DNA of 64,000 nt, taken from positions 1 through 64,000 of IMG/VR virus record IMGVR_UViG_3300037755_000349. One strand, given 5' to 3'. Of this stretch, positions 25,809 through 57,279 are shown piece after piece. Positions within the stretch are counted from its first letter, which is position 1; each line of letters opens with the position of its first letter. The DNA is from a virus. Its lineage: Duplodnaviria; Caudoviricetes. The translations under genes were made by a program, and so were the position numbers. A model generated the notes under the pieces. That model made no database searches, was not told the origin of the DNA, and saw nothing but the letters and a program-made list of their open reading frames with translations.

Positions 25809-26513
25809 GTGAGCATCGCCGGCACGTACTCGTTCGATCCTGACCTCGCCGAATACTTCGACGAGGCTTACGAGCGTGCCGGCGTTGATCCGGTGGCGAT
25901 CGGCCAGGACTTCATCACCAGCGCGTTGCGCTCGATCAAGTTCCTGTTCTCGGAGTGGCAGACGCTCGGCATCCGCCAGTTTCAGATCACACAGACGACG
26001 CAGGCCACCACCGCCGGCATGGCCAGCTTCACCCTGCCCACCGGGGCGAGTGACATCGTGAACATGGTGCTGCGCCGCTCAGGACGCGACACGCCGATGA
26101 ACCGGATCTCGCGCATGGAGTTCATCGAGATCGCGAACAAGACGGAGAACGGTCGGCCGGATCGCTTCTTCGTTGATCGCCAGTACAACCAGGTTGTAGT
26201 CAACCTGTGGCGCCGCGGCGAGAACACCACCGACATCATCCTGTACGACTACTACCGGCGCATCTCCGATCCGGGCCGCATGGCCAATACTCTGCAACTG
26301 CCGGTGCACATGCTCGATGCGTTCGCCTCGGGTCTTGCGATGCGCCTGGCGCAGAAGTTCAAGCCAGAGCGCTACGCGACCCTCGCCATTGAATACGGCG
26401 GCACGGCCTACCCGAGTAAGATCGGCGGGCGGCTTGAGCACGCACGCTGTGAAGACCGGGAAAGAAGCGACACGGTAATCACGGTCTCCTACGATCGTCG
26501 CTTTGGACGCTAA
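25809..26513 (+). CDS. Head-tail adaptor / tail tubular A-like protein
   Basis: GTYSFDPDLAEYFDEAYERAG..GRPDRFFVDRQ..LP..DAFASGLAMRLA. Confidence 0.6.
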   Translation: MSIAGTYSFDPDLAEYFDEAYERAGVDPVAIGQDFITSALRSIKFLFSEWQTLGIRQFQITQTTQATTAGMASFTLPTGASDIVNMVLRRSGRDTPMNRISRMEFIEIANKTENGRPDRFFVDRQYNQVVVNLWRRGENTTDIILYDYYRRISDPGRMANTLQLPVHMLDAFASGLAMRLAQKFKPERYATLAIEYGGTAYPSKIGGRLEHARCEDRERSDTVITVSYDRRFGR

Positions 26514-28252: not shown

Positions 28253-28695
28253 TGATCTATCGCATCACGCATCGTCACGCACCGGAGAAAGTGCTTTTTC
28301 AGCGTGAAGCAGAGTCGCTGAAGGAATGCGTTGAAATGGCGATTCGCTTGATGACAGATCTTTCTTTTGCCGATCTGAAAGCCGCGAACCTGCGCGGAGC
28401 GAAGCTCGGCGGTGGCTTGTTTTTTCAGGCGGATATGCGCGCGGCGGACTGTTCTGGCGCTGATATGAGCGGTGGTAACTTCGGCGGAGCTTACATGGCC
28501 GGCATGAATGGAACGCTGTGTGACGCGCGGGGAGCCATCATGCAATTCGCCAACTGTCGCGGTGCGGATTTTCGCGGGATAGATCTGAGCGAAGCGGACT
28601 GTCGCTGCGCGATTTTCCGTGGTGCTGATCTTCGTGACGCCAAGCTAGAGAGATATCTTTCAGTAGGTGCTGATTTTTCAGGAGCGGTGCTATGA
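28249..28695 (+). CDS. Pentapeptide-repeat protein
   Basis: ADLKA ANLRG ADMRA ADCSG ADMSG ADFRG ADLRD repeats. Confidence 0.85.
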   Translation: MMIYRITHRHAPEKVLFQREAESLKECVEMAIRLMTDLSFADLKAANLRGAKLGGGLFFQADMRAADCSGADMSGGNFGGAYMAGMNGTLCDARGAIMQFANCRGADFRGIDLSEADCRCAIFRGADLRDAKLERYLSVGADFSGAVL

Positions 28696-29348
28696 GCGGC
28701 AGCTACACCTACGATCGGCTCGTCGAGCTGATGCAGACCTACCCGGAAACTTCATCGGCCGAATACATAGCCGACATTCCAGATCTGATCGGCAACGGTG
28801 AGGTGCGGCTGATCCGCGACCTGAATGTGGAGTTCTTCGACTTCACTGATTCGGCGCTGCTCGTAGTGAACGGTGACAATACGGTCACGAAGCCAGAAGA
28901 CATCATCGTGCATCGCACGTTCCAGATTCAGAACGCGACCGGGCAATGGGATCCGCTGGAATATCGATCAAACGACTACGTGCGACTGCATGGCGCCGAT
29001 GAAATCGCGACCGGGCAACCGCGCTACATCGCCGATCATGACGAGTTCGAGTGGATCGTGAGTCCGTATGCAAATGATGACTACACGATCCGCTGCCGCT
29101 TTGTGCGCCGGCCGGATGGATTATCCGCGTCCAATCAGACGACTTGGATCAGCACCTACGCCGGCGATGCATTGCTCGCGGCCAGTTTGATGGAAGCCGA
29201 GCACTGGTTGAAGGCGGACGATCGTTACGAGGACATGAAGAAGAAGTACTACGAAGAGTTGCTGCCGACGATTCGGCTGGAGCTGCGGCGCGCGATCCGT
29301 AGCGGCGATTACAGCCCATTCAAACCGGCAGCGCAGGCAACCGAGTAA
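28692..29348 (+). CDS. Head-tail connector/adaptor protein
   Basis: YDRLVELMQTYPE..IPDLIGNGEVRLIRDL..TTWISTYAGDALLAASLMEA. Confidence 0.6.
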   Translation: MSGSYTYDRLVELMQTYPETSSAEYIADIPDLIGNGEVRLIRDLNVEFFDFTDSALLVVNGDNTVTKPEDIIVHRTFQIQNATGQWDPLEYRSNDYVRLHGADEIATGQPRYIADHDEFEWIVSPYANDDYTIRCRFVRRPDGLSASNQTTWISTYAGDALLAASLMEAEHWLKADDRYEDMKKKYYEELLPTIRLELRRAIRSGDYSPFKPAAQATE

Positions 29349-34258: not shown

Positions 34259-34456
34259 ATGCTGAAGAAAGAAGAACTGATCTCGATCAAAAGAATGCTC
34301 CTGAATGTCCTGCCCTCGCAGGGTCAACCGATGCGCGTCTTGGCGCCAGAACTGCAAGCCTGGCAGCAGGCGGTGAGCGCCGTGGATCGGGAGCTGAAGG
34401 CGGCGGATAAGGAGCTGGAGCGGCTCAACCGAGAAGATGGAGTGGCTGAATCGTGA
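34259..34456 (+). CDS. Small coiled-coil protein (possible fibre chaperone)
   Basis: Follows the fibre gene; helical. Confidence 0.45.
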   Translation: MLKKEELISIKRMLLNVLPSQGQPMRVLAPELQAWQQAVSAVDRELKAADKELERLNREDGVAES

Positions 34457-34932
34457 GCGCTCAGACTATTATCCGCCCCGCAACCGCGTTGGACGCCGTG
34501 AATGTCCTGAAGATCATCCGCAAGAGCGACGACCCGCTGGCGGGAGGGGCTTCGGGAGAAAACGAGTTGCAAGCCGTCAGGCGTGTATTGGATGTCATCG
34601 AGACTTCCGTCGCTCTTGTCAGTGAGCAGCATGGCCGCGTGGTCGGAACCATCGCTTTGCGGCCTGTGCAGGAATTAGGTGCGTGGATGCTGGACGAGGA
34701 GTGGTTCGCTGTTCTTCCCTCGTTTCGGTCACGGCGTGAGCCGTATGAGTTGCTCGCGGCATGCGAGAAGATTGCGGATCGTCAGGGTACGGCGATTCGC
34801 ATAGGCAAGCGGGTGGAGACCGCGGCCGAACTCAGATCCGTCTTTACGCGCCTGAAGTCCTATTCGTTTCACGATGGTGCATACGTGAGGCGACCAGGTG
34901 CAAAGCCATTATTCCAGTCGGCCGCTTACTAA
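34453..34932 (+). CDS. GNAT-fold acetyltransferase-like protein
   Basis: IIRPATALD..LVSEQHGRVVGTI..WFAVLPSFR. Confidence 0.65.
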   Translation: MSAQTIIRPATALDAVNVLKIIRKSDDPLAGGASGENELQAVRRVLDVIETSVALVSEQHGRVVGTIALRPVQELGAWMLDEEWFAVLPSFRSRREPYELLAACEKIADRQGTAIRIGKRVETAAELRSVFTRLKSYSFHDGAYVRRPGAKPLFQSAAY

Positions 34933-35547: not shown

Positions 35548-36012
35548 ATGAAATCACCAGCTCCGACCATCCGCATCGCAGCCGAAGCCGACATCCCGCG
35601 CATCATCGAGATGGGCCGGAAATTTTGGGCACTCACCGACTACCGATCGGTGGAGTACGACGCCGGTTCGATCGAGCACTGGTCGAAATTGATGATCGAC
35701 CAGGGATTGCTCCTGGTTGCGGAGGTCGACGGCGAAGTCGTCGGCTCTGTCGGCGCATTGAGCGCTCCGCTGTTGGGCAACGTGAAGTATCGAGTAGCGT
35801 CGGAGCTGTTTTGGTGGTTGGAGCCAGAGCATCGCACCGTGGGCCTGGGCGCCGCGCTGCTGATCGGCATCGAGGGCGCAGCGAAGGCCCAAGGCGTGAA
35901 GTTCTTCAACATGATCGCGCTGAACGCGGTGGAGCCGGAACGCGCAGCACAGGTATACCTGGAGCGCGGATACAAACTCACAGAGTGGTCTTTCACGAAA
36001 GAGCTGTACTGA
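35548..36012 (+). CDS. GNAT-family acetyltransferase
   Basis: IRIAAEADIP..LVAEVDGEVVG..FWWLEPEHR..GLGAALL..YLERGY. Confidence 0.8.
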   Translation: MKSPAPTIRIAAEADIPRIIEMGRKFWALTDYRSVEYDAGSIEHWSKLMIDQGLLLVAEVDGEVVGSVGALSAPLLGNVKYRVASELFWWLEPEHRTVGLGAALLIGIEGAAKAQGVKFFNMIALNAVEPERAAQVYLERGYKLTEWSFTKELY

Positions 36013-37121: not shown

Positions 37122-38540
37122 ATGCTGCAACAACCACAGAATTCCTCGATGCAGGAGTACATGGCGCAGTACGGTGAGCGCTTGAACGCGCTACTTGGTT
37201 ACGCGCCGCAACCATCGAATCTCGGTGCTGCGCAGTCCGGCGAGAGTCCAATGGTGGACGAGATGGGCGCCGCGCCAGCGTCGCCAGGCATGAATCTCGG
37301 CGCCGAACAGGCACAGCCGATGATGCAGCAACAGCCCGCGGCAGCTCCGGCCGCGCCGAGTGCTGCGCCGGCGCCGACTACTCCGCCCATGCAGAAGAAC
37401 GAGAAGGGCCAGGTGGTGATCGAGTCGCGCCCCAAGGACTTCGACTTCGGTGTGAAGGATGACGATCTCAAGGATGTGAAGAGCGTCGGGGACCTGGTGC
37501 AGAAACTGCCCGAGGAGAAGGCGAACGCATACATGGATTGGTGGGAAGAGCGCTACGGGCAGGTCAATGGCAAGTACGACGCGATGCTGGCGGAGCTTGG
37601 CCAGCGTCCCGATCCTAAGTCTCGCGATCTATCGCGCAAGGACAAATTCACGCTGCTGATGGAGTTCGGCCTCAATTTGATGAAGCACTCTCAGCAGGGC
37701 GGCGATCGAACTGGCGCAATGGGAGCCGCTCTGCACGATACCGTGCGAGGTGATCAAGCACGCCGGGAGAAGGACTTCGAGCGGCATCGGAGTCTGAGTG
37801 GCGAAATCGAAGGGCGGCGGCAGCAAGACCTCAAGGCGATCGGCACGCGCGGAGATGCGATGGTCGCGTCGCAAAACCTTGGCGCTGCCGCTGCCAAAGA
37901 AGGCCGCGAAGCGACCGAGTTCGCCGAGCGCGACGAGGAAGTCAAGAACATCGTCTATGGCGATGAGGGTGTCGTCGGTGTTACTCGCAAGGGTGAGGGG
38001 CGTACCGTCACCGATGAGACCGGCCGCGCCGTCAGATCCACACTCGGCATTGCTCGCGGATCTCGCGGTAGTGGCCGCGGTGCTGGCGGCTATGCGCCGC
38101 ATAACATTGAGAAGCTCGCGACTTTTTACTCCAAGACCTACGACATCCCGATCGAGGTTGCCACCAACATCGCGCGCTCGGAAAAGAACGCGACCGATCC
38201 GTTCAAGATGTATTCGACCATCTTGAACGGACAGCTTCGGCAATACATGCCGGCCGACGAGGCGGCGAGGGTAGCGAAGGAGTTGGTCGAGGGTGCGTTC
38301 GGTGAGGGCGCGCTCGACAGCAAGCCAGGTGCGCCGATCGAGCGACCAGGTGGCGGCGGCAACCTCGGCGCCGCGGAGCCCGCCGCCGCGCCTGCACCTG
38401 GTTCGAGTCTCGGCAGCTCCGCTCCGCCGGCAAATCTGCTCAAGTCGGGCAAGGTGACCACGATCCGAAACAAGCGCACTGGCGCAGAGGAGAAGTGGAC
38501 GCTCGATGAGACCGGACAGCCCAAGCGAGTACTACGCTGA
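37122..38540 (+). CDS. Internal virion/ejection protein
   Basis: Pro/Ala/Gln-rich ends with a helical core; position between pilot and giant protein. Confidence 0.55.
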   Translation: MLQQPQNSSMQEYMAQYGERLNALLGYAPQPSNLGAAQSGESPMVDEMGAAPASPGMNLGAEQAQPMMQQQPAAAPAAPSAAPAPTTPPMQKNEKGQVVIESRPKDFDFGVKDDDLKDVKSVGDLVQKLPEEKANAYMDWWEERYGQVNGKYDAMLAELGQRPDPKSRDLSRKDKFTLLMEFGLNLMKHSQQGGDRTGAMGAALHDTVRGDQARREKDFERHRSLSGEIEGRRQQDLKAIGTRGDAMVASQNLGAAAAKEGREATEFAERDEEVKNIVYGDEGVVGVTRKGEGRTVTDETGRAVRSTLGIARGSRGSGRGAGGYAPHNIEKLATFYSKTYDIPIEVATNIARSEKNATDPFKMYSTILNGQLRQYMPADEAARVAKELVEGAFGEGALDSKPGAPIERPGGGGNLGAAEPAAAPAPGSSLGSSAPPANLLKSGKVTTIRNKRTGAEEKWTLDETGQPKRVLR

Positions 38541-38541
38541 C

Positions 38542-41500
38542 ATGGCAACGAACGAATGGGAGGTCATCGGCGAAGAGCCGGATGTACTGCAACCTGCAAC
38601 ACAACCGACTGTAGCGCCGCAGAATGTGTTGCAGGGTGCAGTACAAAATGATTGGGAGGTTCTAGGCGAGGAGGACCTCACGCCCGATGCACTGCTGCCT
38701 GGCGAGGCGTTGAATCTCGCGACAGCGCCCGATGAGCAGTTCGGTCTCGATGAGACACAGCGGAGCATGGCGAGTGCACTCACGCGCGCCGGCGCCGATC
38801 AAATCATCGACGATGTGGCGAGCCGGGAAATCTTGGCTGCACCGCCGCCGGCGCCTGGCCGTATCGAGCCCACCGCGCTCACGGCAACGCGCAGATTTCT
38901 CCCTGGCGGCAAGCAGATAGCCGAGCCCGTCGATCCGGACGTCGACCTGCGCGCGATGAAGCGCCTGCCGGGAAATATTGGCCGCAGCTCGAAGGCTCAG
39001 GTGAAGGAAGCGATCGCCGGCACACAGCGCCTGTTCGCCGACTTGCAGGCCAACATGGACATCGCGAAAGCGGAATCGTATCGCTCGTACCAGAGCGACG
39101 ATCCGCAAGTGCTGGCACAGCAGCAGGCCGCGGCCGGTGAAGCCGAGGAGCGCGCCGGCCACGCGGAACTTGCGCAGGGTCGAGCTGCTCGCACGACGCG
39201 ACGCGCGCAGGCCGAGGGGCAGGCCGCAATCCCCGCCGACGCCGGCGAGATCGAGCGAGCGATCCAAAGTGGCGTATCGAGCGCGGCGGTGACACTGCCG
39301 ATCGTGACGCTTGGCTCCGTGGTGCCTGGTGGCCAGGGTGCTGCGCTGGTAACGCTCGGTGGCATGACGGGCAGCGCACGCTACGGCGAGCTGCGCGCCG
39401 CGGGGCTCGATGAGGGTACGGCGGCGTTGAGCGCAGCAGCGCTCGGTGGCCTCGAAGGGCTCACCGAGAAAATCCCGTTGGGCACGCTGGCTAAGAAGTC
39501 GCCCTTTATCGAGAAGGCCACCGAGTTCCTGGTGCAGGACCTGCTCGGCGAGAACGTGTCCACCGTGGCGCAGATCGCGGACGACTACCGCCTGGGCCTG
39601 CGCGATGACGTGACGATGGCCGACGTGCAGCAAGCCATCAAGGAGACGAGCGCGGCGACGATCGCCGGCTCCGCCGCGCAGCTCACCGTGTCAGGCATCT
39701 TCGAACAGGCCCTCAACCGGGCGAACCAGAAGGCAATCGACCGCGAGGCCAAGGCGGGCATGCAGCGCCAGGAGCCGTTCATCTCCGAACCCGACCTGGC
39801 GGGCATCGGCGAGCTGGAGTACGAGGCGGCGCCGGCTGCTGCCGCGGGCGATCTGGAGGTAGTGGCCGAGGAACCCCTGGCGGCTGCCCCTGGCAGCGCT
39901 CAAGACGAGCTGGCCGCGCTGGAGGCCCTACGCAAGGGCGGAGCCACGCCCGAGCAGGAAGCGATCCTGGAGGGCCTGGGCCACCTGGTGCGAACCGAGA
40001 CCGGGACGCCAGTACTACTGCCATCGGGACGGCGTAGACTTACGGAGCTGAATCAACAGCTTGCGGATAGTCGCAGTGAAACAAAAAACCAGGCTCTCCC
40101 TCAGCCCGTTGCAGCAGGTGCTAAAGAAGCACCTGGATCGGCTCAACCCGGATTGGGCGAAGCGGCCGGGACCACACCGTCGCTCACAGAAGCAACTCAG
40201 GGAGCAGCGCGCGGCGTCCGTGTTGGTCGATCGCCGGCGCCTGGTGGTGAACGACAAGGTGAAAGTGTTGCTGCTGGAGAAGCCAACCTCGAAGACACGA
40301 TCCCAATCCCGCAGCAATACGAGCGGGTGATCCTGGAGTCGATCATCAAGGACGACGCGACGCCGGGGCAGATTGGTATCGCGATATCCCGAGGGTTTGC
40401 AAAGCGCCGCTCCGATGGCACCGCGACGCTGTTGCCGGCGGGCCGGCGGCGGCTGGTCGAACTGGAGTCAGGCCAGCCGCCGGCCGACGTTGAGGCGACG
40501 TTTGAGGGCGAGGAGCTGCGCCGAGCTGGCGATCTTCGCCGCACGCCGCGAGTGGAGGTTAAGCCGGCACAGGCGCGCAGCGGCAGCGTTCAGACGCCGC
40601 GTGGCGGCTTCACTGTGCACGTCGATGGCAAGCCGGTCGTCGAGCTTCCCGATGCGCAAGCCGCGCGCGAGGCCGCGGCCGGATTTGCGGCTGACGGGAC
40701 TTTTAAGACCACCGTCGCCGGGCAACCCGTGTCGGTCGACGTGACGCCTACGGACGCGCAGAAGGCGTCCGGCACCTATACCAAGGGTCACATTCGCTAC
40801 GAGGGTCTCCAGATCTCGATCGAAAATCCCAAAGGCTCTATTCGCTCTGGCGTGTCGGAAAGTGGGAGAAAGTGGAGCCGTGCGCTTGGAGCTGATTACG
40901 GGTACGTGCGCGGTTCCGAATCTGCTGACGGCGATCATGTCGATGTCTTCCTCGGTGATGCGACCAGCGACGTTGCGTACATCGTCGATCAGGTGAAAGC
41001 GGATGGCACTTTCGACGAGCACAAGGTGATGCTCGGCTACCCATCGCTTGAGGCTGCGACCGCAGCGTATCGAGCACAGTACCCAAAGGGATGGAAGGGA
41101 CTCGGTGCGATAACCCACATACCGATCGCGGACTTCAAAACGTGGGTGAAGTCTCCACAAGCGAAGCAACCCTACGCATGGAAACCTAAAGCGCAAGCTG
41201 TCGCCGCGGTTCCCTCGGCCGAACCAGCGCCTGAGCGCGCGAAGCTGCACAAGAAGATCTATCGCGGCACCGAGGCCGGCACGAAAGGAGCCGAAACGCG
41301 CGCTGCACCGCGAGGTGAATTGGGGCCGGGCATCTACTTCACGCCGGATGCAAAGCTCGCCGCGAGTTACGGCGGTGGCCCCACGGCGAGTATCGCGAAG
41401 GGCACTCGCGTGGTGCACACCGCGGAGCTGGCGCGCGATCTGAAGGCCGAGGAGATTGGCACACTCGAAGGCGGATCTCGCGACGGGGAGACTGCGCGCC

Positions 41501-44500
41501 TGGTCTCGAATGGCAAGGAGTTGTGGCGCGGCGAGTGGAACGCACGCAAGTCGCAAGAGGCGAACTATCAGGCGATGGTGAAGGCGATCAAAGGCGCCGG
41601 CCTGAAGATGATCGTGGGCGCCGATGACTCGATCGCAATCAACCAGGTCGCTGTAACAGATCCGAACATTCTGAAATTCGATCAGGCGAAGCTGCACAAG
41701 AAACGTCTTCCATTGGAAGAGCGAGCGGATGACGCCTCAGATCAGCAGCGAGCCACGTTGCGCGATATCGATACGGCGTCGGTTACTCCGCAATTTCAAT
41801 TGCGCGCCGCCACGGAGGATGTCTACGACACCGCGGATGCCCACTTCACCTCTTCGGAGGTTTTGAAGGGCGTTCATGATGTGCCGCTGAAAACTCTTGG
41901 CCTCACTGGCTACGACGATGCGAAATCTGTCGCGCGTATCGCGCGCCTGGCCGAGCAGATCAAGGAGAGCGGCGAGGTCTCGCCGATCATGGTGGGCATC
42001 GACCGCAATGGCGAAGCCTACGTGATGGAGGGCCAACATCGAGCGCGCGCGCTGCAACTACTTGGTAGTGACAGCATCCCGGCGAAAATCGTCTTGGACA
42101 CGACCGACGACGATGGCGTGCGGCTACATAAGAAACAAACCGAGACTGCCGCATTCAAGAAGTGGTTCGGCGATAGTAAGGTGGTCGATGCGGACGGCAA
42201 TCCTCAAGTCGTCTATCACGGCACCGGAAACCTGGAGGGGCTGAACGAATTCCGGCCCGAGCTAACTGGCCTCGGCAACGATCAAATCGGCAGCGGCTTT
42301 TACTTCACGACAAGCCAGGAGGAGGCAAGCGCTTACACAACAGCGCGCATGCCGAACGCAGGAACCAAGCTCGGCGGTGATCAATCACCAGGCATTGTTC
42401 CTGCCTACCTGAGCATCAAGAATCCGATCATCGTAAAAGGCCCCAATCTTCGCGATGTTGATGTGGATCTGTCGGCGAAGCAGGTAGAGGCAATTATCCG
42501 CCACGCGCCGCGGTTATTCGATGTTGAAAACACGCCGCTTCTTGATTGGCATGAGAATGCGAGCACACGCGTTACTCCGGCAATGGTCAGGGATGTAGCA
42601 AAGAAATACACCGGCCCGGCGCTTATCCAGATCGAACACGATTTTTTTGGTCGTGAAGGCGAGGCCACGAAGTTCCGCGAAGCGCTGCGCAAGGTGCTCG
42701 GGTATGACGGCGCGGTGATCGACTTCGGAACGAAGAAGCATTGGGTCGCCTGGTTTCCTGAGCAGATCAAAAGCGCGATCGGCAACCGCGGCACGTTCAA
42801 TCCGAAAGATCCGGATATTCGCTTTCATAATAAGCAGTCCAAAACCGACGCGTTCAGGCGCTGGTTCGGTGAAAGCAAAATCGTGGACGACGAAGGCAAC
42901 CCGCTCGTCGTGTACCACGGCACGGGCAGCGACTTCACCGAGTTCCAGCCTACCGATTACGGCTGGTATGGGTGGGGTTCTTACTTCACCAGCAACGAAA
43001 AATTCGCGAATGAGTTCGCCGAGGGAGCGGACGGCAATCCGAACGTGATGCCGGTGTATCTGGCGATCGAGCGGCCTTTCTACTTCACACCGAAGGACAA
43101 CGACACGCCAACCAACGTGCAGTTGCTCATGGCTGTCGGACACTCACGCCGCAAAGCCGAGAGCATCATCAATCGCGAAGGCGACGTGAACGTCCGGGTA
43201 TTCGACAAGCTGCAAGAGGAGGGGCACGACGGCATTGTCGTGCTCGAACCTGGGCGCACCGAGTACATCATCTTCGAGCCATCGCAGATTAAGAGCGCGA
43301 TCGGTAACACCGGCGCATTCGATCCTGCTAATCCGAACATTCTATTTCACAAGGCTTTCCACGGCTCGCCGTATCGCTTCCAGAAGTTCGTGCTCGATGA
43401 CAAGACCATCGGGACCGGCGAAGGCGCACACGCCTACGGATGGGGCCTGTACTTTGCCGAAAACGAAGCCGTTGCAAAGGACTATCAGCGCCGCCTGTCC
43501 GATTCCTCCGCGCATGTGCGCCTGAGCGTGAATGGCAAGGAATTGGAGGACGGACCCGAGCGCCATGGCGCCAGTCTCGTGGCCTTCAACGATCTGCGCG
43601 AGGTGCGCGCACTCGCGAAGCGCTGGCTCGCCGAGTATGAGAACGACCCCGGCATGAAGGAGACGGCGGAGCACGCCGGCCTAGCCGCGGCGGAGTATTG
43701 GCCACGGTTGAACAGCTTCGTGCAAAGCCACACGAAGAGGGACATCAAGGTGGCGCGCGGCTTGCTGTACAGCGTGGAGATCAACGATGCCGCGGTGAAA
43801 AACATGCTGGACTGGGATGTGACGTGGGAATCGCAACTCGACACGGTGAAGGAGACGCTGCGCAAGGCAGGCGTGTTCAAACGCTACAAGGCGAACCTGA
43901 GCAACTACGGCACGCCCATGCAAACGCGCAATCGCAAGATGCGCGGGGAGAGCATCTACGCGTTCCTGAGCATGGAGAAGGGCGGCGACCAAGCGGCCTC
44001 GAAGTATCTCTCCTCGCTCGGCATCCACGGCCTGCGATACAAGGACGAAGGATCGAGAGGCAAACGCGGCGGCACACGCAACATCGTGGTGTTCGACGAC
44101 TCGATCATCACTGTGACGCACATCGATGGCTCGCCGGTCACGGCGCAGGAGCGCACCGATGCGATCGGTCCGCTGTTCAGCCGCGTCAACACCAACGCGA
44201 ATGAGAGCAGGTATCGCGCGATCACGGGCACACCCCGCGAGCAGCGCTCCGCGCAAGTGCGCACGGAAGTGAACCGCGTGCTGCGCAACTTCCCCGGCGC
44301 ATCGGCCAACGTGGTGCAGACTTTCAACGAGCTGCCCAACGACGTGCGCGCGCGTGTGATCGCCGCCGGCGGCCTCGATGAGAAAGGCAACCCCGCGGTC
44401 GATGCGTTCTACGACCCGCCAACCGGCCAGGTGTATTTCATCGCGAACGAGATCGAGTCGATCGACAGCATCGAGTCGTTGTTCCTGCACGAGTATGTCG

Positions 44501-47500
44501 CGCACAAGGGCCTGGTCGGCATGCTCGATACGGCAAAGCGTGACGAAATTCTCAACGGCATTGCACGCGACCTGCCCGACCTGGTGCGGCAGAAGGCGGC
44601 CGATTACGGCTATCGCTTTCACGTTCCTGCTGAACGACGAGTCGCGGCCGAGGAGGTCGTCGCTGAGATGGCGGAGACTTTCTTGCGAGGTCGGGATCTG
44701 CCGGCGAAGCAGAAGGGTATTCTCGATCGCATAATTCAGGCGATCGCTGATGTCTTGCGGCGCATAGGTCTGCGCAAATACGACGAGCAATTCATCGCCT
44801 CGTTACTCACGGATCTGCACCGCTATGCGCGCGAAGGCCATGCTCGGAAGGAAACCGCTGAGCCGTATCGCGCACGCGCAAGTACGGCCCCTGCGTTCCC
44901 TGATTGGGATGATTCGAACGCCTCCGAGGTCGTCCCCAACTTCCAGGACTATGTGGATCGCGCGCGCCTGCATCTCTCCGGGAAGAGTGAAGAGGAGATC
45001 TATTCCTATGCGCTGAAGCAGTTCGACGAACGGCAACAGCTCTGGCAGTGGGAGGGATTCTTCGAGGGCGGGCACGTCCTTGTGCGCGGGACACAGGCCG
45101 GTGGCTACGATCTCTACGTCAACGATGCGCTCATCGTCCCGGATGACGGCGGAAACTACCCGAACCTACAGCTCGCACAAGCGGCAGCTCGGGTACTCGT
45201 GGCGGAGGAGGGTGGAGTCTCCGACGCCGAGGCTGAGCGCATCCTCAACGCAGTGCCATTAAGCGCGGACCTGCGCGTCAAGTTCCATCGTAAACCGTTC
45301 TTCTCGCAGCTCGCCGTGCGGCTGTCGGAGCTGCGCCTACAGAAGGCGCCGGCGTCCCAGTGGCGCGGCGTCATCGCGAACCTCACCGGCAAGGGCGTGA
45401 GCCCCGAAGAGATCGAGTGGCTCGGGATCAACGAGTGGCTCGCCGAGCAGGATGGCAAGGTCACGAAGGAGCAGGTACTGCAATACGTGCGCGCCAACCA
45501 AGTGCAGATCCAAGAGGTCGTGAAGAGCGCCTTTACCAAGGAAACCATTGACGAGGCAGTCACTGCTATTGACCGCGCTCTCGGCACTTTTACGGACTGG
45601 ATCACGCCTGGTGATCTTGATTATTACGATCGCGTCGAGCCGTCCGTCGATAAGGATAAGTTCACGACCTATGCTCGTACCGCAAAGGGCGAGCGCATCG
45701 ACATGACCGTGAAAGTCACAGACGTGGATTCCCAAGATTGGAACGATGGCGGATGGGTTAACGCGACCGTCACTCTCGCAGATGGTCGCAGCGCGGAGGC
45801 CGGCGCATGGTTCAGTTATCGCCGCGGCACCCTTGAGATTGATCCTTATGGGCTTGGCGAGTGGCGCGGTGATGAATTCTCAGAGGATGAGGTTGATGCT
45901 ATCAAAGAGGCAATCGGCGAGATCGCCTTGTCCGAAAACACAGAGCTAATGGACACTGTCCAACACGCCTCGGACGAATTCGATAGCGATCTTATAAGAG
46001 CAAGAAACGAACTTTTGAGTGGCGACGTGGAGGCGGCTATTTCTGCACTTAAAGACGCGGCCCGCACAGAGCGCGTATACGGCGATGATGTAACCGTTAG
46101 CCCGATTGTAGATCTACTCACCGAGGATGAGGGATCTATCAAGTATGAAGACTGGAAGCTACCGGGCGGCGAGAATTATCGCGAACTGTTGCTGACGCTG
46201 CCGCCAAAGAAAGATCTGCCGGAGGAATTCAAGGCGGTGGAGATAGGCGAAGGCCGATGGGCCGTGTTCGGTCCTGGCCCGCAAGGCGCGAATCGATACG
46301 GTTCCGGCACCACGCGCGAGGAAGCGATCGAATCCTTCGTCGGTCACGGCCACACCGGGGCGTTCATCTCAAAGCACTGGGCCGAGCCGAACATCCTCGC
46401 TCACGTGCGCTTCGATGAGCGCACCGACGCTGATGGCAAGCGCGTGCTGTTCATTGAGGAGATACAGAGCGATTGGCATCAAGCCGGCCGCAAGCACGGA
46501 TACAAAGGCGACTATGTTCCGCCGTCCACGGCTGATATCGAGCGGTACAACGAACTGCGCGCAAAGAGGGACATCACCAACACGGAAGATGCAGAGCTGA
46601 CCAAGCTGGAGAAGCTGATACGCCAGCACGATGACATGATCGCTAGACTGGTGCCGGATGCTCCCTTTAAAACATCATGGCCCGAGTTGGCGTTCAAGCG
46701 CATTTTGAAATGGGCTGTCGATGAAAACTTCGATCGCGTGACGTGGACCACCGGCGCGCAGCAGGCAGATCGATATGATCTGAGTAAAAAAGTAAAAGCG
46801 ATCGAGTACACGGCCTCGGGTCGGTTGATTGCCATGGGCATAAGTGGCAGTCCGGTAATGAATGAGGCGGTCCCAGAAGAAAAAATCGCTGACTATGTTG
46901 GCGAAGAGCTTGCCAAGAAGTTACTCGAACAACCCTTAGTTAAGGCAGGACCAGTGCACAGTCGTGTGTTGCGCGATGTGGATTTGAAGATGGGCGGCGA
47001 GGGCATGGTTGAGTTCTACGACCAGATGCTGCCGCGCATCGCCGTCAAACTCACGAAGAAGTGGGGTGGCCGAGCATCGAAGACAAAGCTGCGCGGTGTC
47101 ACTCGCGAAGAGCGGATCAACGATCGCTACCAGATCCGCGAGACCTCCGCGGGCTGGACGCTGCTCGACGCGGCCGGCAATCCGCTTGCTGATCGACGCG
47201 CCTTCCGCAACGGGGCGGCGGCCGAGAAGTGGCTGGAGGAGAACGGCTACCTCGATGAGGAGGTTCACTCGCTGGATATCACCGACGACATACGCGAGGT
47301 CGCGCTCGGCGGCCTGCCGATGTTCCATCGAAAGTCCATGGTCGGCGTGTTCCGCCGGCGCCAGGCGGTGCAGAACGGCACCTTTGACCTGGTCGAAGGG
47401 TCGCGCACCTCGCGCTGGTGGAACCTCCTGGTCTTCAAGGCGCAGGACCGTTTCTACGATCTGTTCCGGCTCAACGAGCAGGCGAAGATCTTCCGCCAGA

Positions 47501-50274
47501 TCGCGCAGCTCCCCGACTCGATGGACGCGTACCTGAAGGAGACGCTCTACCATGGTCGCGTAGAGGATCGCGTCAAAGAGTACGAGAAGCAGTTCGTCGA
47601 GCCACTGGTGAAGATGATCAAGGACTCCGGCTATACCTGGCAGCAGGTGGAGGATTACCTGTACGCGCGGCACGCGCCCGAGGCGAACGCGAGGCTCCTC
47701 ACGATCAACAACGGGAATCCGAACTTCCATTCCGGTATGACGGACGCCGAGGCCACGCAGGTGATGACGGCGCTCGGCGCTGCGGGCAACATCGCGAACC
47801 TGCAAGCGATCGGCGCTCATGTCGATGCAATGACGCAGTGGGAGCGCTCCACGCTGGTGCTGGAGGGCCTCGAAGACCAGGCCACCATCACCGAGTGGGA
47901 GAACACCTATGATCACTACGTCCCGCTCAAAGGGTGGGCGCACAACCCTGAACTTGCTGAAATGCCTCGTCGAGGCCGAGGCTTTGATACTGGTGGTCGG
48001 ACAACAAAAGACCGCACTGGCCGCACGTCTCGTGCGGGAAACATCCTCGCCAACATCGTCGCGCAAGCGCAGATGGCCGTCATCCGCGCGGAGAAGGCCA
48101 AAGTAGGCCGGGCGCTGCTGGAGTTCGTGAAAGCGAACCCGGCGCCGCGGCTATACGAGGTCAACCAGGTCGAGTACCACCGCTACATCGACTCGGGCAC
48201 GGGCCTGGTGCGCCAGGGCGTGAACCCGCAGTACAAGCTCGCCGACAACGTGGTGCGCGTGCGCATGGCCGGCAAGGATGAGCACATCGTGTTCAACCCC
48301 AACGAGCCGCAGATGCAGCGCCTGGCGACCGCGATGAAGAACCTCTCGGCCACCGAGATGGGCCTGATCCTGTCGTTCCTGCACGGGATCAACCGCTACC
48401 TCTCGACGATCAACACCTCGCTGAATCCCGAGTTCGTGATCTCCAACGCGCTGCGTGACTTGCAGACCGCTGGCATCAACTTGCAAAGCACCGACCTGAA
48501 GGGCCAGGCGCTCGCGATCATGAGCCAGTGGCGCCATGCCTGGAAGGCGATCCGTCAGGCCGAAGCCGGCAACACGACGCACGCGTGGGCGCCGTGGTGG
48601 GATCGCTTCAAGAAGGCCGGCGCGAAAACCGGGTGGATTCAGCACTACGGCACGCCGGTGGACATCGAGAAAAAACTTCAAAAGGAAATCAACCGGCACG
48701 GTGTGGTGGGCAACGCGGCCAAGGGGATCGAGGTGACGCTCGGCTGGATCGAGCGGCAGAACCTGGCGGTCGAGAACGCCATGCGTCTGGCCGCCTTCCG
48801 GGCTGCTGTCGAGGCTGGCATGTCGGACGAGCGCGCCGCGCAGATCGCGAAGAATCTCACCGTGAACTTCAACAAGCGCGGTGACCTGGGTATTGCACTG
48901 AACTCGTTCATCCTGTTCTACAACGCCGGCGTGCAGGGCACGGCAACGATCCTGCGTGCAGCAAAGAGCCCGCGGGCGCGCAAGTTCATGTATGGCCTGG
49001 TCGCGGCTGGCATCGTCATCGACATCATCAATCGCATGGTGGCGGGCGAGGACGATGATGACGAGAACCGCTACGACAAGATCCGCAGCTACGAGAAGGA
49101 GCGCAACATCATCGTGATGCTGCCGAAGGAGCAGCGCTTCACGCTGCCATCGGGCGATGAGATCGATCACCTGAAGATCCCGATGCCCTACGGGTACAAC
49201 TTTCTGTACTACACCGGAACGAAGATCGGCGGCGTGCTCGACTATCACACCATCGGCAACAAGCGCCGCTTCGAGCCGGCCGAAGATGCCGCGCAGGTGG
49301 TGGCCTCGTTCTTGGGCGCATTCAACCCGATCGGTGGGTTCGCCAATCCACTGGAGTCGATCACGGCGGTGGAGCAGTACATCCAACTGAAAGAAGAGCG
49401 AGCGTGGGACGGCCGCCCGCTCATGCCACCACAGCCGCAGTACGACATTCCGGTGCCGGACTCGCAACGCTTCTGGCGGTCCACCGGCAAGGGTGCGCGC
49501 GAGGTCACGGCTTGGCTCAACGAGCACACCGGTGGCACCGACGTAACGCCGGGCAAGATCGACATCTCGCCGGCGACGGTGGATTACTGGATTGACTTCG
49601 CCCTCGGTGGCAGCGGCCGGTTCATCTCCAACACGATCAATGCGACGCACGATATCGCGCTTGATCGCAAGGACCTGGACCTGGGCGAGGTGCCCTTCGT
49701 GCGCCGCGTGCTCGGGCAGACCGGGGAGCGCGATCGCCAGGAGCGGTTCTACACGCGCATGAACGAAGTGCAGTACGTGATCAAGGAGCGCGAGGTCGCG
49801 CGCGAGATGCGCCGCTTCGCGAAGACGCCCGAGGAGATGCAGCCCTACGAGGAGCGCAACGCATTCATCGATAAGCGCTACCCGATCGCGGCCAAGGTGG
49901 AGATGGAAGGCCGGCGCGCGGAGGCCAAGCTCAAGCAGCTCCGAGCTGGACGCAAGGCGCTCCAGAAACAGGAGGGCCGCATGGAGGAGAGCAAGCGGCT
50001 GGAGCGCATCGAGTCGATCGAGGCGGAGATGCGCGCCACGATGGACCAGTTCAATCGCTCCTGGAACGAGGCCGAGGACGCACAGCGCGGCGCCACCGAG
50101 ACGAAGGATCTGATCGGCCAGCTCGGACCGATCATCGACGGCAAGAACCGCCGCGACGCCGTGCGTGCGTTGCGTGAGGCGGGCAAGCCGGCGACAGCCG
50201 AGCTGCTCGCGGCACTGCCGACCACGCTTCGCACGCAGCTCCGCGAGCTGCTGGAGCAGGAAGCCGCCTCATGA
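38542..50274 (+). CDS. Giant polyvalent internal virion protein (~3,910 aa): InPase-like, ParB-like, four ART-like, metallopeptidase and LPD38-like domains
   Basis: ISIENPKGS..DGDHVDV..FDEHKVMLG; EGQHRARAL; YHGT..GFYF modules; HEYVAH; EEIQSDW; C-terminal KIPMPYGY..DISP. Confidence 0.85.
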   Translation: MATNEWEVIGEEPDVLQPATQPTVAPQNVLQGAVQNDWEVLGEEDLTPDALLPGEALNLATAPDEQFGLDETQRSMASALTRAGADQIIDDVASREILAAPPPAPGRIEPTALTATRRFLPGGKQIAEPVDPDVDLRAMKRLPGNIGRSSKAQVKEAIAGTQRLFADLQANMDIAKAESYRSYQSDDPQVLAQQQAAAGEAEERAGHAELAQGRAARTTRRAQAEGQAAIPADAGEIERAIQSGVSSAAVTLPIVTLGSVVPGGQGAALVTLGGMTGSARYGELRAAGLDEGTAALSAAALGGLEGLTEKIPLGTLAKKSPFIEKATEFLVQDLLGENVSTVAQIADDYRLGLRDDVTMADVQQAIKETSAATIAGSAAQLTVSGIFEQALNRANQKAIDREAKAGMQRQEPFISEPDLAGIGELEYEAAPAAAAGDLEVVAEEPLAAAPGSAQDELAALEALRKGGATPEQEAILEGLGHLVRTETGTPVLLPSGRRRLTELNQQLADSRSETKNQALPQPVAAGAKEAPGSAQPGLGEAAGTTPSLTEATQGAARGVRVGRSPAPGGERQGESVAAGEANLEDTIPIPQQYERVILESIIKDDATPGQIGIAISRGFAKRRSDGTATLLPAGRRRLVELESGQPPADVEATFEGEELRRAGDLRRTPRVEVKPAQARSGSVQTPRGGFTVHVDGKPVVELPDAQAAREAAAGFAADGTFKTTVAGQPVSVDVTPTDAQKASGTYTKGHIRYEGLQISIENPKGSIRSGVSESGRKWSRALGADYGYVRGSESADGDHVDVFLGDATSDVAYIVDQVKADGTFDEHKVMLGYPSLEAATAAYRAQYPKGWKGLGAITHIPIADFKTWVKSPQAKQPYAWKPKAQAVAAVPSAEPAPERAKLHKKIYRGTEAGTKGAETRAAPRGELGPGIYFTPDAKLAASYGGGPTASIAKGTRVVHTAELARDLKAEEIGTLEGGSRDGETARLVSNGKELWRGEWNARKSQEANYQAMVKAIKGAGLKMIVGADDSIAINQVAVTDPNILKFDQAKLHKKRLPLEERADDASDQQRATLRDIDTASVTPQFQLRAATEDVYDTADAHFTSSEVLKGVHDVPLKTLGLTGYDDAKSVARIARLAEQIKESGEVSPIMVGIDRNGEAYVMEGQHRARALQLLGSDSIPAKIVLDTTDDDGVRLHKKQTETAAFKKWFGDSKVVDADGNPQVVYHGTGNLEGLNEFRPELTGLGNDQIGSGFYFTTSQEEASAYTTARMPNAGTKLGGDQSPGIVPAYLSIKNPIIVKGPNLRDVDVDLSAKQVEAIIRHAPRLFDVENTPLLDWHENASTRVTPAMVRDVAKKYTGPALIQIEHDFFGREGEATKFREALRKVLGYDGAVIDFGTKKHWVAWFPEQIKSAIGNRGTFNPKDPDIRFHNKQSKTDAFRRWFGESKIVDDEGNPLVVYHGTGSDFTEFQPTDYGWYGWGSYFTSNEKFANEFAEGADGNPNVMPVYLAIERPFYFTPKDNDTPTNVQLLMAVGHSRRKAESIINREGDVNVRVFDKLQEEGHDGIVVLEPGRTEYIIFEPSQIKSAIGNTGAFDPANPNILFHKAFHGSPYRFQKFVLDDKTIGTGEGAHAYGWGLYFAENEAVAKDYQRRLSDSSAHVRLSVNGKELEDGPERHGASLVAFNDLREVRALAKRWLAEYENDPGMKETAEHAGLAAAEYWPRLNSFVQSHTKRDIKVARGLLYSVEINDAAVKNMLDWDVTWESQLDTVKETLRKAGVFKRYKANLSNYGTPMQTRNRKMRGESIYAFLSMEKGGDQAASKYLSSLGIHGLRYKDEGSRGKRGGTRNIVVFDDSIITVTHIDGSPVTAQERTDAIGPLFSRVNTNANESRYRAITGTPREQRSAQVRTEVNRVLRNFPGASANVVQTFNELPNDVRARVIAAGGLDEKGNPAVDAFYDPPTGQVYFIANEIESIDSIESLFLHEYVAHKGLVGMLDTAKRDEILNGIARDLPDLVRQKAADYGYRFHVPAERRVAAEEVVAEMAETFLRGRDLPAKQKGILDRIIQAIADVLRRIGLRKYDEQFIASLLTDLHRYAREGHARKETAEPYRARASTAPAFPDWDDSNASEVVPNFQDYVDRARLHLSGKSEEEIYSYALKQFDERQQLWQWEGFFEGGHVLVRGTQAGGYDLYVNDALIVPDDGGNYPNLQLAQAAARVLVAEEGGVSDAEAERILNAVPLSADLRVKFHRKPFFSQLAVRLSELRLQKAPASQWRGVIANLTGKGVSPEEIEWLGINEWLAEQDGKVTKEQVLQYVRANQVQIQEVVKSAFTKETIDEAVTAIDRALGTFTDWITPGDLDYYDRVEPSVDKDKFTTYARTAKGERIDMTVKVTDVDSQDWNDGGWVNATVTLADGRSAEAGAWFSYRRGTLEIDPYGLGEWRGDEFSEDEVDAIKEAIGEIALSENTELMDTVQHASDEFDSDLIRARNELLSGDVEAAISALKDAARTERVYGDDVTVSPIVDLLTEDEGSIKYEDWKLPGGENYRELLLTLPPKKDLPEEFKAVEIGEGRWAVFGPGPQGANRYGSGTTREEAIESFVGHGHTGAFISKHWAEPNILAHVRFDERTDADGKRVLFIEEIQSDWHQAGRKHGYKGDYVPPSTADIERYNELRAKRDITNTEDAELTKLEKLIRQHDDMIARLVPDAPFKTSWPELAFKRILKWAVDENFDRVTWTTGAQQADRYDLSKKVKAIEYTASGRLIAMGISGSPVMNEAVPEEKIADYVGEELAKKLLEQPLVKAGPVHSRVLRDVDLKMGGEGMVEFYDQMLPRIAVKLTKKWGGRASKTKLRGVTREERINDRYQIRETSAGWTLLDAAGNPLADRRAFRNGAAAEKWLEENGYLDEEVHSLDITDDIREVALGGLPMFHRKSMVGVFRRRQAVQNGTFDLVEGSRTSRWWNLLVFKAQDRFYDLFRLNEQAKIFRQIAQLPDSMDAYLKETLYHGRVEDRVKEYEKQFVEPLVKMIKDSGYTWQQVEDYLYARHAPEANARLLTINNGNPNFHSGMTDAEATQVMTALGAAGNIANLQAIGAHVDAMTQWERSTLVLEGLEDQATITEWENTYDHYVPLKGWAHNPELAEMPRRGRGFDTGGRTTKDRTGRTSRAGNILANIVAQAQMAVIRAEKAKVGRALLEFVKANPAPRLYEVNQVEYHRYIDSGTGLVRQGVNPQYKLADNVVRVRMAGKDEHIVFNPNEPQMQRLATAMKNLSATEMGLILSFLHGINRYLSTINTSLNPEFVISNALRDLQTAGINLQSTDLKGQALAIMSQWRHAWKAIRQAEAGNTTHAWAPWWDRFKKAGAKTGWIQHYGTPVDIEKKLQKEINRHGVVGNAAKGIEVTLGWIERQNLAVENAMRLAAFRAAVEAGMSDERAAQIAKNLTVNFNKRGDLGIALNSFILFYNAGVQGTATILRAAKSPRARKFMYGLVAAGIVIDIINRMVAGEDDDDENRYDKIRSYEKERNIIVMLPKEQRFTLPSGDEIDHLKIPMPYGYNFLYYTGTKIGGVLDYHTIGNKRRFEPAEDAAQVVASFLGAFNPIGGFANPLESITAVEQYIQLKEERAWDGRPLMPPQPQYDIPVPDSQRFWRSTGKGAREVTAWLNEHTGGTDVTPGKIDISPATVDYWIDFALGGSGRFISNTINATHDIALDRKDLDLGEVPFVRRVLGQTGERDRQERFYTRMNEVQYVIKEREVAREMRRFAKTPEEMQPYEERNAFIDKRYPIAAKVEMEGRRAEAKLKQLRAGRKALQKQEGRMEESKRLERIESIEAEMRATMDQFNRSWNEAEDAQRGATETKDLIGQLGPIIDGKNRRDAVRALREAGKPATAELLAALPTTLRTQLRELLEQEAAS
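41239..41702 (+). repeat. 17-bp exact direct repeat GCGAAGCTGCACAAGAA flanking one module of the giant gene
   Basis: Copies at 41239-41255 and 41686-41702, both encoding AKLHKK. Confidence 0.85.
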
Positions 50275-56332: not shown

Positions 56333-56998
56333 TTAAAAATTGACGGTAGGAAATCCGGGCGAGGTGGTCTTCTTCGGACCAGGCCGCTCACCCCTGCGAA
56401 AAATCTCCATGAACTCATGGCACCGTTCGAGCATGTACTGCTCACGCCGGCGATCGCGCGGAACGTCGATGCGGACCAGTCGGCTCGCCGGATCCGGCAT
56501 CTCGGGATTGAAGCTCAGGAAATGCGTCACATCCAAGTCGTGCACGAACATCTGGCAGTCGATCTGCGGGATGTGCTCGTCAGGCACCTGGCCATACATC
56601 ATTACCCTGCTGTGGCGAGAGAGGACGACTGGACACTTCACCTCGCCGTTCGCACGGAAGTCGAAGCCCTCGATTGCGATGAAGTCACTCGATGCGCCGA
56701 TGTACGGGATCTTGAGCGATTCCGCAAATGGCGGCCTGACGACCTCCACATCGTGATCGAGGCAGAAATTCTCGATCGCCGGCGTCTCCCAGTGATGGCC
56801 CCAACGGATCGCCGCCGGCGGCGGTCCGCCGTTCCATTGGTCGGGCGGCGGCTCGTCCGATTCGACCTCGGTTTGCAGCTCGTTCATCAGCGAGGTCCAG
56901 CCGCGCCAGGTGCCGCGGACGACTCGGTACATGCGCGAGCTGGTGATGTGGCCGCGCCGAGCGAGCCACCACTCGCGGGTATGCTGGTGCGGGTTCAT
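56333..56998 (-). CDS. YqaJ/lambda-exonuclease-family nuclease
   Basis: EWWLARRGHITSS..WGHHWE..GASSD..EVKCP..QIDCQM. Confidence 0.85.
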   Translation of the reverse strand: MNPHQHTREWWLARRGHITSSRMYRVVRGTWRGWTSLMNELQTEVESDEPPPDQWNGGPPPAAIRWGHHWETPAIENFCLDHDVEVVRPPFAESLKIPYIGASSDFIAIEGFDFRANGEVKCPVVLSRHSRVMMYGQVPDEHIPQIDCQMFVHDLDVTHFLSFNPEMPDPASRLVRIDVPRDRRREQYMLERCHEFMEIFRRGERPGPKKTTSPGFPTVNF

Positions 56999-57279
56999 TC
57001 TTGCGCCGCCGCCGCCGCTGCCATCTCGGTGGCCATCTGCGAGCCGGCGATCGCACACAATCCTTTTTCGATGCGATCCAACATCTCCAGCTCTACCCAC
57101 TTCGCCTCCGAGCCCATGAACGAGCTGGCGGCCCCGACGACGGTGCATAGCAGCTTCAGCGCCGAGGGTTGAATGAGCACGGCGCCGCCGCTGCTTTCCC
57201 CGTGCTGCGCGAGCGCCTCAATTAGGTTGAGAAATCGTTTTACTCGCAGATGCACTGCGATTCTTTCGTTCGGTGTCAT
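56995..57279 (-). CDS. Hypothetical protein
   Basis: Stop overlaps the YqaJ start. Confidence 0.5.
   Translation of the reverse strand: MTPNERIAVHLRVKRFLNLIEALAQHGESSGGAVLIQPSALKLLCTVVGAASSFMGSEAKWVELEMLDRIEKGLCAIAGSQMATEMAAAAAAQE

Follow-up and report, generated by a model that had tools for sequence, protein, structure and literature searches.

Positions 1 to 64,000 of the IMG/VR virus record IMGVR_UViG_3300037755_000349 (Duplodnaviria; Caudoviricetes), referred to as the window and belonging to a 72 kb genome, contain the gene of a giant polyvalent ejection protein, P0001 (38506..50274, + strand, open reading frame (ORF) and translation of 3,922 aa), in which a short peptide recurs at the joints of complete modules. 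We tentatively interpret these junction peptides as processing sites of the polyprotein type that are cut by a metallopeptidase embedded in the same chain, and assign to this reading a probability of roughly 45%. Pfam recognises in P0001 an InPase domain (aa 750-882), a weak ParB_N domain, two ART-PolyVal domains and an LPD38 domain (aa 3520-3732), which makes it a phage polyvalent protein as Iyer et al. 2017 (PMC5512222) use the term, a single chain with several unrelated catalytic or binding domains. Besides these Pfam domains, the chain comprises two further ART-like modules and a zincin-like region with an HEXXXH motif.

An initial annotation of the window had pointed to seven [LF]H[KRN][KA] sites; all seven were recovered in this one ORF and are listed below together with an additional Ser-type joint (5b) that the annotation had missed. 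HSP denotes the high-scoring segment pairs of BLAST alignments and AF2 the AlphaFold2 models.
41239..41256, + strand: junction 1, AKLHKK, aa 912-917; AKLHKK is also present in the relative P0214
41686..41703, + strand: junction 2, AKLHKK, aa 1061-1066; first 17 bp identical to junction 1
42121..42135, + strand: junction 3, RLHKK; 295 HSP starts of relatives fall here
42820..42834, + strand: junction 4, RFHNK; from the motif scan of the ORF
43342..43356, + strand: junction 5, LFHKA; 332 HSP ends of relatives fall here
44170..44187, + strand: junction 5b, PLFSRV, Ser type; aligned with DIRMHRT of P0214
45280..45294, + strand: junction 6, KFHRK; in the low-confidence end of an AF2 model
47320..47334, + strand: junction 7, MFHRK; from the motif scan of the ORF

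Each H[KRN]K of P0001 is preceded, without exception, by L or F. The seven sites compare with a mean of 0.19 in 20,000 shuffles of the P0001 sequence, none of which contained four, and the enrichment test proposed by the annotation gave 1.78 sites per 1,000 aa in P0001 vs 0.09 in all other stop-to-stop ORFs of the window. The modules delimited by these sites are as follows.
38506..40740, + strand: N-terminal backbone region, aa 1-745, motif-free, no Pfam family; 59% identity to P0214
40753..41151, + strand: InPase domain, aa 750-882 (PF18823, E 2.5e-49)
41257..41685, + strand: module A, diverged ART-like cassette with a weak match to an ART-PolyVal module of P0116; YRGT replaces YHGT, and the Pfam search gave no match
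41707..42117, + strand: ParB-like module, aa 1068-1204 (PF02195, weak); homologues in P0142, P0137 and P0027
42139..42819, + strand: ART-PolyVal module 1 (PF18760) including the QIKSAIGN...DPDIR tail, with the tail logo as evidence
42838..43341, + strand: ART-PolyVal module 2 including its tail (PF18760, profile 1-140/140; AF2 model)
43357..44169, + strand: module E, start FHGSP..., ART-like; weak match to the ART-PolyVal N-terminus, E 9.5e-4
44314..44850, + strand: zincin-like metallopeptidase core, with HEYVAH at 44488-44505 and Glu2050 at 44653-44655
45295..47316, + strand: module F, start PFFSQL..., no Pfam family
47335..50271, + strand: C-terminal backbone module G with LPD38, aa 3520-3732 (PF18857)

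The claim that the sites fall between recognisable domains holds for all Pfam assignments, as InPase, ParB_N, both ART-PolyVal domains and LPD38 are separated by them. Homology blocks of about 300 relatives end at the junction sites of P0001, and relatives' BLAST HSPs have 50-53% of their end points no more than 10 aa from a junction, vs 4% expected. Gain and loss of modules, which the annotation had suggested looking for in related genomes, is seen in P0214: it carries an unrelated helical module in place of module A between the same two AKLHKK joints and has no ParB module, and the breakpoints are located at LHKK. HSP ends and P0214 breakpoints thus coincide with the junctions, and the objection foreseen by the annotation, namely module boundaries of homologues lying off the motif, therefore does not apply.

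Proteins consisting of a single module mark the same borders. Stand-alone ART-PolyVal proteins keep the whole tail and end with ...NPDIR-x immediately before the motif position; of 49 distinct short ART-PolyVal proteins in which a tail is detectable, 13 stop exactly two residues past the tail Ile and have a polar last residue, at the point where fused forms carry F or Y. Their N-termini lie just past the motif position, a few residues ahead of the F..WF helix. Similarly, module F starts where P0043 and P0064 have their N-termini, and ends in relatives with PMFSR, PMFSP or PQFSR at the place of PMFHRK in P0001, while module E of relatives starts directly after joints of the DIRYSRA-, NILMQSV- or KFHLA- type. 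In the AF2 model of aa 1436-1625 (pLDDT, the model's per-residue confidence, 86.8) the ART tail is ordered up to about F1614/H1615, beyond which pLDDT falls below 50; junction 6 likewise lies in a low-confidence AF2 stretch, and in front of the module start that follows it relatives carry FSVS, YSRE, MHQRN or FHKN. As at polyprotein sites, one short consensus is thus found at each joint of complete domains, in exposed sequence.

Among 150 distant homologues the His form is not enriched (47 found vs 66 expected), and the literal motif is therefore clade-specific. At the equivalent place after their ART-PolyVal domains, distant homologues carry ...QIKSAxGNxGxFDxxNPDI-R-F-S-x (423 tails in 135 proteins), and hydrophobic-Ser peptides also border modules other than ART-PolyVal. 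A search with the C-terminal module G yielded 387 relatives in a graded series which includes the giant protein of Stx phages. In P0214, P0215, P0216 and P0124 (81, 63, 62 and 42% identity, respectively) the joints read [LFM]H[KRQ][KRN]; relatives with 46-50% identity carry LFSRK or LFSRR at the corresponding joint, and another group of relatives alternates FHV and FSV. When 227 large proteins were ranked by their excess of the His type, the top four were exactly the His clade, and P0001, P0214, P0215, P0216 and P0124 have the His form in common at unrelated joints. At junction 5b, P0001 has PLFSRV and P0214 DIRMHRT; His and Ser thus replace one another even inside the clade. The motif [LF]H[KRN][KA] is the His form, specific to this clade, of a more general junction element in which a hydrophobic residue precedes Ser or His, usually with a basic residue next.

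The junction type is moreover uniform within a protein. At equal ART-core identity (25-45%), the four residues after the tail Ile (tail positions 20-23) show 54-58% identity when ART modules of a single protein are compared and 18-23% when those of different proteins are, while the conserved tail positions 5-17 show no within-protein vs between-protein difference. Recent duplication of modules therefore does not explain the uniformity. A role of the Ser/His-basic peptide as ADP-ribose acceptor or in DNA binding was considered and dropped, Ala and non-basic variants being frequent at the same positions. As a separate observation, P0009, P0011, P0033 and P0092 carry a second conserved motif after each junction, N-x-NHD-x-KGRFASG or WDE-x-KHPRGE-x-G-[WF], an undescribed repeated element which may represent a further type of junction or a packaging signal.

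The candidate enzyme resides in the zincin-like region. The family of the HEYVAH segment occurs in 104 of the collected related proteins with the signature HExxGHxGL, and 93-100% of 87 aligned homologous segments retain H1995, E1996, H2000, G2002 and E2050; of these, H1995, E1996, H2000 and E2050 form the conserved, predicted catalytic set of the family. Zincin metallopeptidases of polyvalent proteins, including an HEXXXH clade, have been described (PMC5512222), and the order of secondary structure elements in the AF2 model (strands, helix 53-67 with HEXXXH, helix 107-126 with the Glu) agrees with that description. The presence of this predicted peptidase is associated with the chemistry of the junction: a hydrophobic residue follows 85% of the ART tails in proteins with an HExxGHxGL zincin, 62% in those with another HExxH string and 24% in those with none.

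On this basis we propose the following scenario. The giant protein would be packaged in the head and then ejected, its conserved backbone (N-terminal region, zincin, module F and module G) bearing a changeable string of effector modules. Every joint of complete modules would present a short exposed peptide consisting of L or F, then His (Ser in most other lineages) and then basic residues. This peptide might be the recognition site of the embedded HEXXXH gluzincin, with the scissile bond probably directly in front of the hydrophobic residue, placing the latter at P1'. Cleavage would turn ART, ParB, InPase and further modules into individual free proteins, either in the capsid or after ejection. 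We read the peptides as processing sites because the joint consensus is short, exposed, uniform within the protein, lineage-specific and associated with an embedded putative protease. Autoprocessing by the metallopeptidase of polyvalent proteins was already proposed by Iyer et al. 2017, and DdrB of phage P1 is known to be processed (PMC5512222).

Several findings weigh against this scenario. The zincin region has no Pfam match at E < 1 and no sequence match in the Protein Data Bank; Foldseek returned nothing at E < 0.001, VIA-align reached a best Z of 4.6 with no peptidase among its rows, and neither the ESM Atlas nor short homologues gave a name. The association between zincin and junction type (Kruskal p = 8e-8) was calculated with the kinship of the proteins ignored. 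Among proteins with at least three tails, 26% have no HExxH string at all, and the embedded zincin therefore cannot be the universal reader of the junctions. In P0001 itself the motif is absent from the N-terminal region and from module G. Finally, N4 vRNAP, ArdC and TraC1 carry metallopeptidase domains yet are delivered uncut (PMC5512222), and the giant homologues of JC1 (PMC9144972) and phi24B (bioRxiv 10.64898/2026.04.10.717836) were detected in purified virions by mass spectrometry, their processing state not being stated there.

The uncut delivery of such proteins and the presence of giant homologues in virions are in line with a peptide that is never cleaved. It would then be an inter-module linker or handling signal which allows the modules to fold, unfold and thread through portal and tail singly, or to dock on a common partner, with the chain remaining intact; we consider this rather unlikely. 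The position of the peptide where order gives way to disorder in the ART tail suits such a connector, and a common binding partner would account for the within-protein uniformity just as well. A passive connector, however, fails to explain why all joints of a clade switch together between His and Ser and why the hydrophobic first residue tracks the embedded zincin, and the genome yields no candidate partner with a matching signature. If the peptide is cut, the protease might also be a different one, either a host enzyme or an unrecognised head protease of the phage. The multi-tail proteins devoid of HExxH still have uniform junctions, and a protease might be hidden among several structural genes of the phage that are assigned to no family. 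Yet the correlation of junction type with the embedded zincin argues against another enzyme, as does the fact that in the 72-kb genome neither the capsid, scaffold and portal genes nor the other real genes were found to carry the motif, and that no protease besides the zincin was recognised there. We regard the involvement of another protease as improbable.

The annotation had offered a recombination joint for swapping modules as its other reading. In that case the repeat would provide the recombination functions of the phage with microhomology for in-frame insertion, deletion or exchange of cassettes, and the peptide would have no role. The exact 17-bp repeat it described, GCGAAGCTGCACAAGAA, is indeed identical at copies 1 and 2, and identity over 17/17 bp is expected in only about 2% of cases from the codon usage of the gene; moreover, in P0214 the AKLHKK joints enclose a different cassette and ParB is missing, the breakpoints lying at LHKK. 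Of the two recombination genes named in support, YqaJ was identified by Pfam (56333-57148, - strand), while Pfam did not confirm RecT. For the joints in general this account is not supported. The remaining copies differ at synonymous sites and have at most 9 bp in common, which are dictated by the amino acids; GTTCCATCG, noted as shared by the last two copies, is present but does not extend beyond the codons of F-H-R (9 bases). His is encoded by CAC and CAT in a ratio of 3:4 at the seven copies, and Lys, Arg, Leu and Phe are likewise encoded by mixed codons; since the codons differ, selection acts on the peptide and not on the DNA. Among the seven copies in this gene, nucleotide conservation in excess of what the peptide requires is thus confined to copies 1 and 2, and the motif is retained as a peptide at 42-81% protein identity. 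The 17-mer was also rejected as a recurrent DNA site, as IMG/VR gave 28 single matches, nearly all out of context. Recombination at the DNA level is accordingly a plausible account of the first pair, and as an explanation of the junctions as a whole we judge it very improbable. Exchange of modules at the joints between relatives is compatible with cleavage and recombination alike. Of the two readings of the annotation, the cleavage site for the HEYVAH peptidase appears, on indirect evidence, to be better supported.

Two observations on the DNA of the repeats are added here. In the IMG/VR contigs L021, L026 and L029 the exact 17-mer is in frame as ...DPAKLHKKYRGRDG..., within ORFs of 217 aa (L021:1514-2167, - strand), 157 aa (L026) and 211 aa (L029), the matches in L026 and L029 being near the start of the locus; the YRG following the 17-mer in all three recalls the start of module A (AKLHKK-IYRGTEAG). 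Furthermore, the motifs appear rich in codons that are rare for the gene (CAT 4/7, TTT 2/4, plus CTA, CGT, CGA, AAT and AAA), perhaps because the cargo modules stem from a source of lower GC content (GC 0.58 at 42-44 kb) or because translation pauses at the joints.

Viral polyproteins, such as those processed by picornavirus 3C or flavivirus NS3, carry a short consensus at all joints of the mature products, which is uniform within a virus, lineage-specific and read by an in-chain protease. Unlike P0001, these are RNA viruses with Cys or Ser proteases, and their sites have been mapped experimentally; in P0001 we infer cleavage of dsDNA phage cargo by a putative zincin. The internal proteins of phage T4 are another case of capsid-targeted, protease-trimmed cargo. 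Like these and P1 DdrB, P0001 would be an effector protein packaged in the head, injected and proteolytically trimmed; P1 and T4, however, rely on head-maturation proteases or a single cut, whereas P0001 has eight internal joints and no recognised head protease.

P0001 shares with the polyvalent proteins of Iyer et al. 2017 (PMC5512222) a single chain with InPase, DdrB-type ParB, ART, LPD38 and a predicted zincin metallopeptidase, its gene lying among those of late virion proteins. Defined here for P0001 and its relatives, by contrast, are a junction peptide, the variants it takes in different lineages and the association with the zincin: the text of that study mentions neither a cleavage site nor a linker or junction motif, and in the literature after it we found no paper naming such a site or linker. 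What appears to be new is consequently the junction code with its His variant; polyvalent proteins and the idea of their autoprocessing were known before. The closest counterparts in overall organisation are the giant ejection proteins of podoviruses, such as phi24B gp47 (bioRxiv 10.64898/2026.04.10.717836), Bcep22 gp75 and JC1 gp69, the last being encoded late in the virion morphogenesis module (PMC9144972). The giant protein of Stx phages (the phi24B gp47 kind) shares module G with P0001 at about 33% identity and contains few such junction motifs. The cargo is different, with a DarB-like protein in JC1 and LPD1/LPD5 plus MuF-C in phi24B, and the peptidase of the phi24B-type protein has been proposed to act on peptidoglycan (bioRxiv 10.64898/2026.04.10.717836).

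Polyvalent proteins are among the largest and commonest cargo proteins of phages and conjugative elements, and since 2017 it has been in question whether such a protein works as a single chain or is split into individual enzymes. A defined junction peptide makes this question directly testable: it supplies a candidate site for the autoprocessing idea of Iyer et al. 2017, and predicts the exact bonds for mass spectrometry and the residues for mutation. It also provides a rule for delimiting modules in thousands of unannotated giant proteins, and could explain how new effector cassettes are inserted without disturbing their neighbours. If the cut lies before the hydrophobic residue, each released effector would have Leu, Phe or Tyr at its N-terminus, residues that act as N-degrons for bacterial ClpS/ClpAP, and the injected enzymes would therefore be short-lived by design and gone after the early phase. 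That polyvalent proteins in general are true polyproteins with a junction code, cut by their zincins before the hydrophobic residue into short-lived effectors, is a far bolder proposal, to which we give a very slight chance.

The genomic surroundings of P0001 are those of a late, virion gene. It is preceded by an ejection-protein-like gene (phrog_4287), virion proteins, SU10-type adaptors and an HK97-type capsid gene, in a layout resembling Bcep22/JC1 and GP4/phi24B-type podoviruses; packaging and injection are predicted from this gene order and from the phi24B gp47 homologue. No near relative was detected by megablast against GenBank phages, tblastn against the same set matched module G only (about 33% identity), and the IMG/VR search for relatives returned one distant locus.

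The ART-PolyVal assignment (PF18760) covers two stretches of P0001 with 192.6 bits vs a curated cut-off of 31.2. In Foldseek the AF2 model of the ART module matched tankyrase/PARP catalytic domains and diphtheria toxin (E 3e-4 to 6e-3, TM score about 0.4), and ART-PolyVal module 2, as modelled, is of the ART fold, PARP/diphtheria-toxin-like. The top structural match of the ART model (42811-43380) was chain 9k3a_B of the cyanophage A4 pre-ejectosome (E 8e-6, TMq 0.41); since this is the best match, a solved ejection protein may contain a domain related to the ART module.

A hydropathy scan revealed two strongly hydrophobic segments in P0001, one in each conserved end (aa 255-275, 39268-39330, and aa 3494-3513, 48985-49044), which are possible membrane-inserting parts of an ejection conduit. 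Two paralogous SU10-type adaptor genes (25809-26513 and 28692-29348) fit the two adaptor rings of phi24B/GP4-type tails, and two acetyltransferase-like genes (phrog_1249; 34453-34932 and 35548-36012) lie amid the virion and ejection genes just upstream of P0001, as in Bcep22-like phages.

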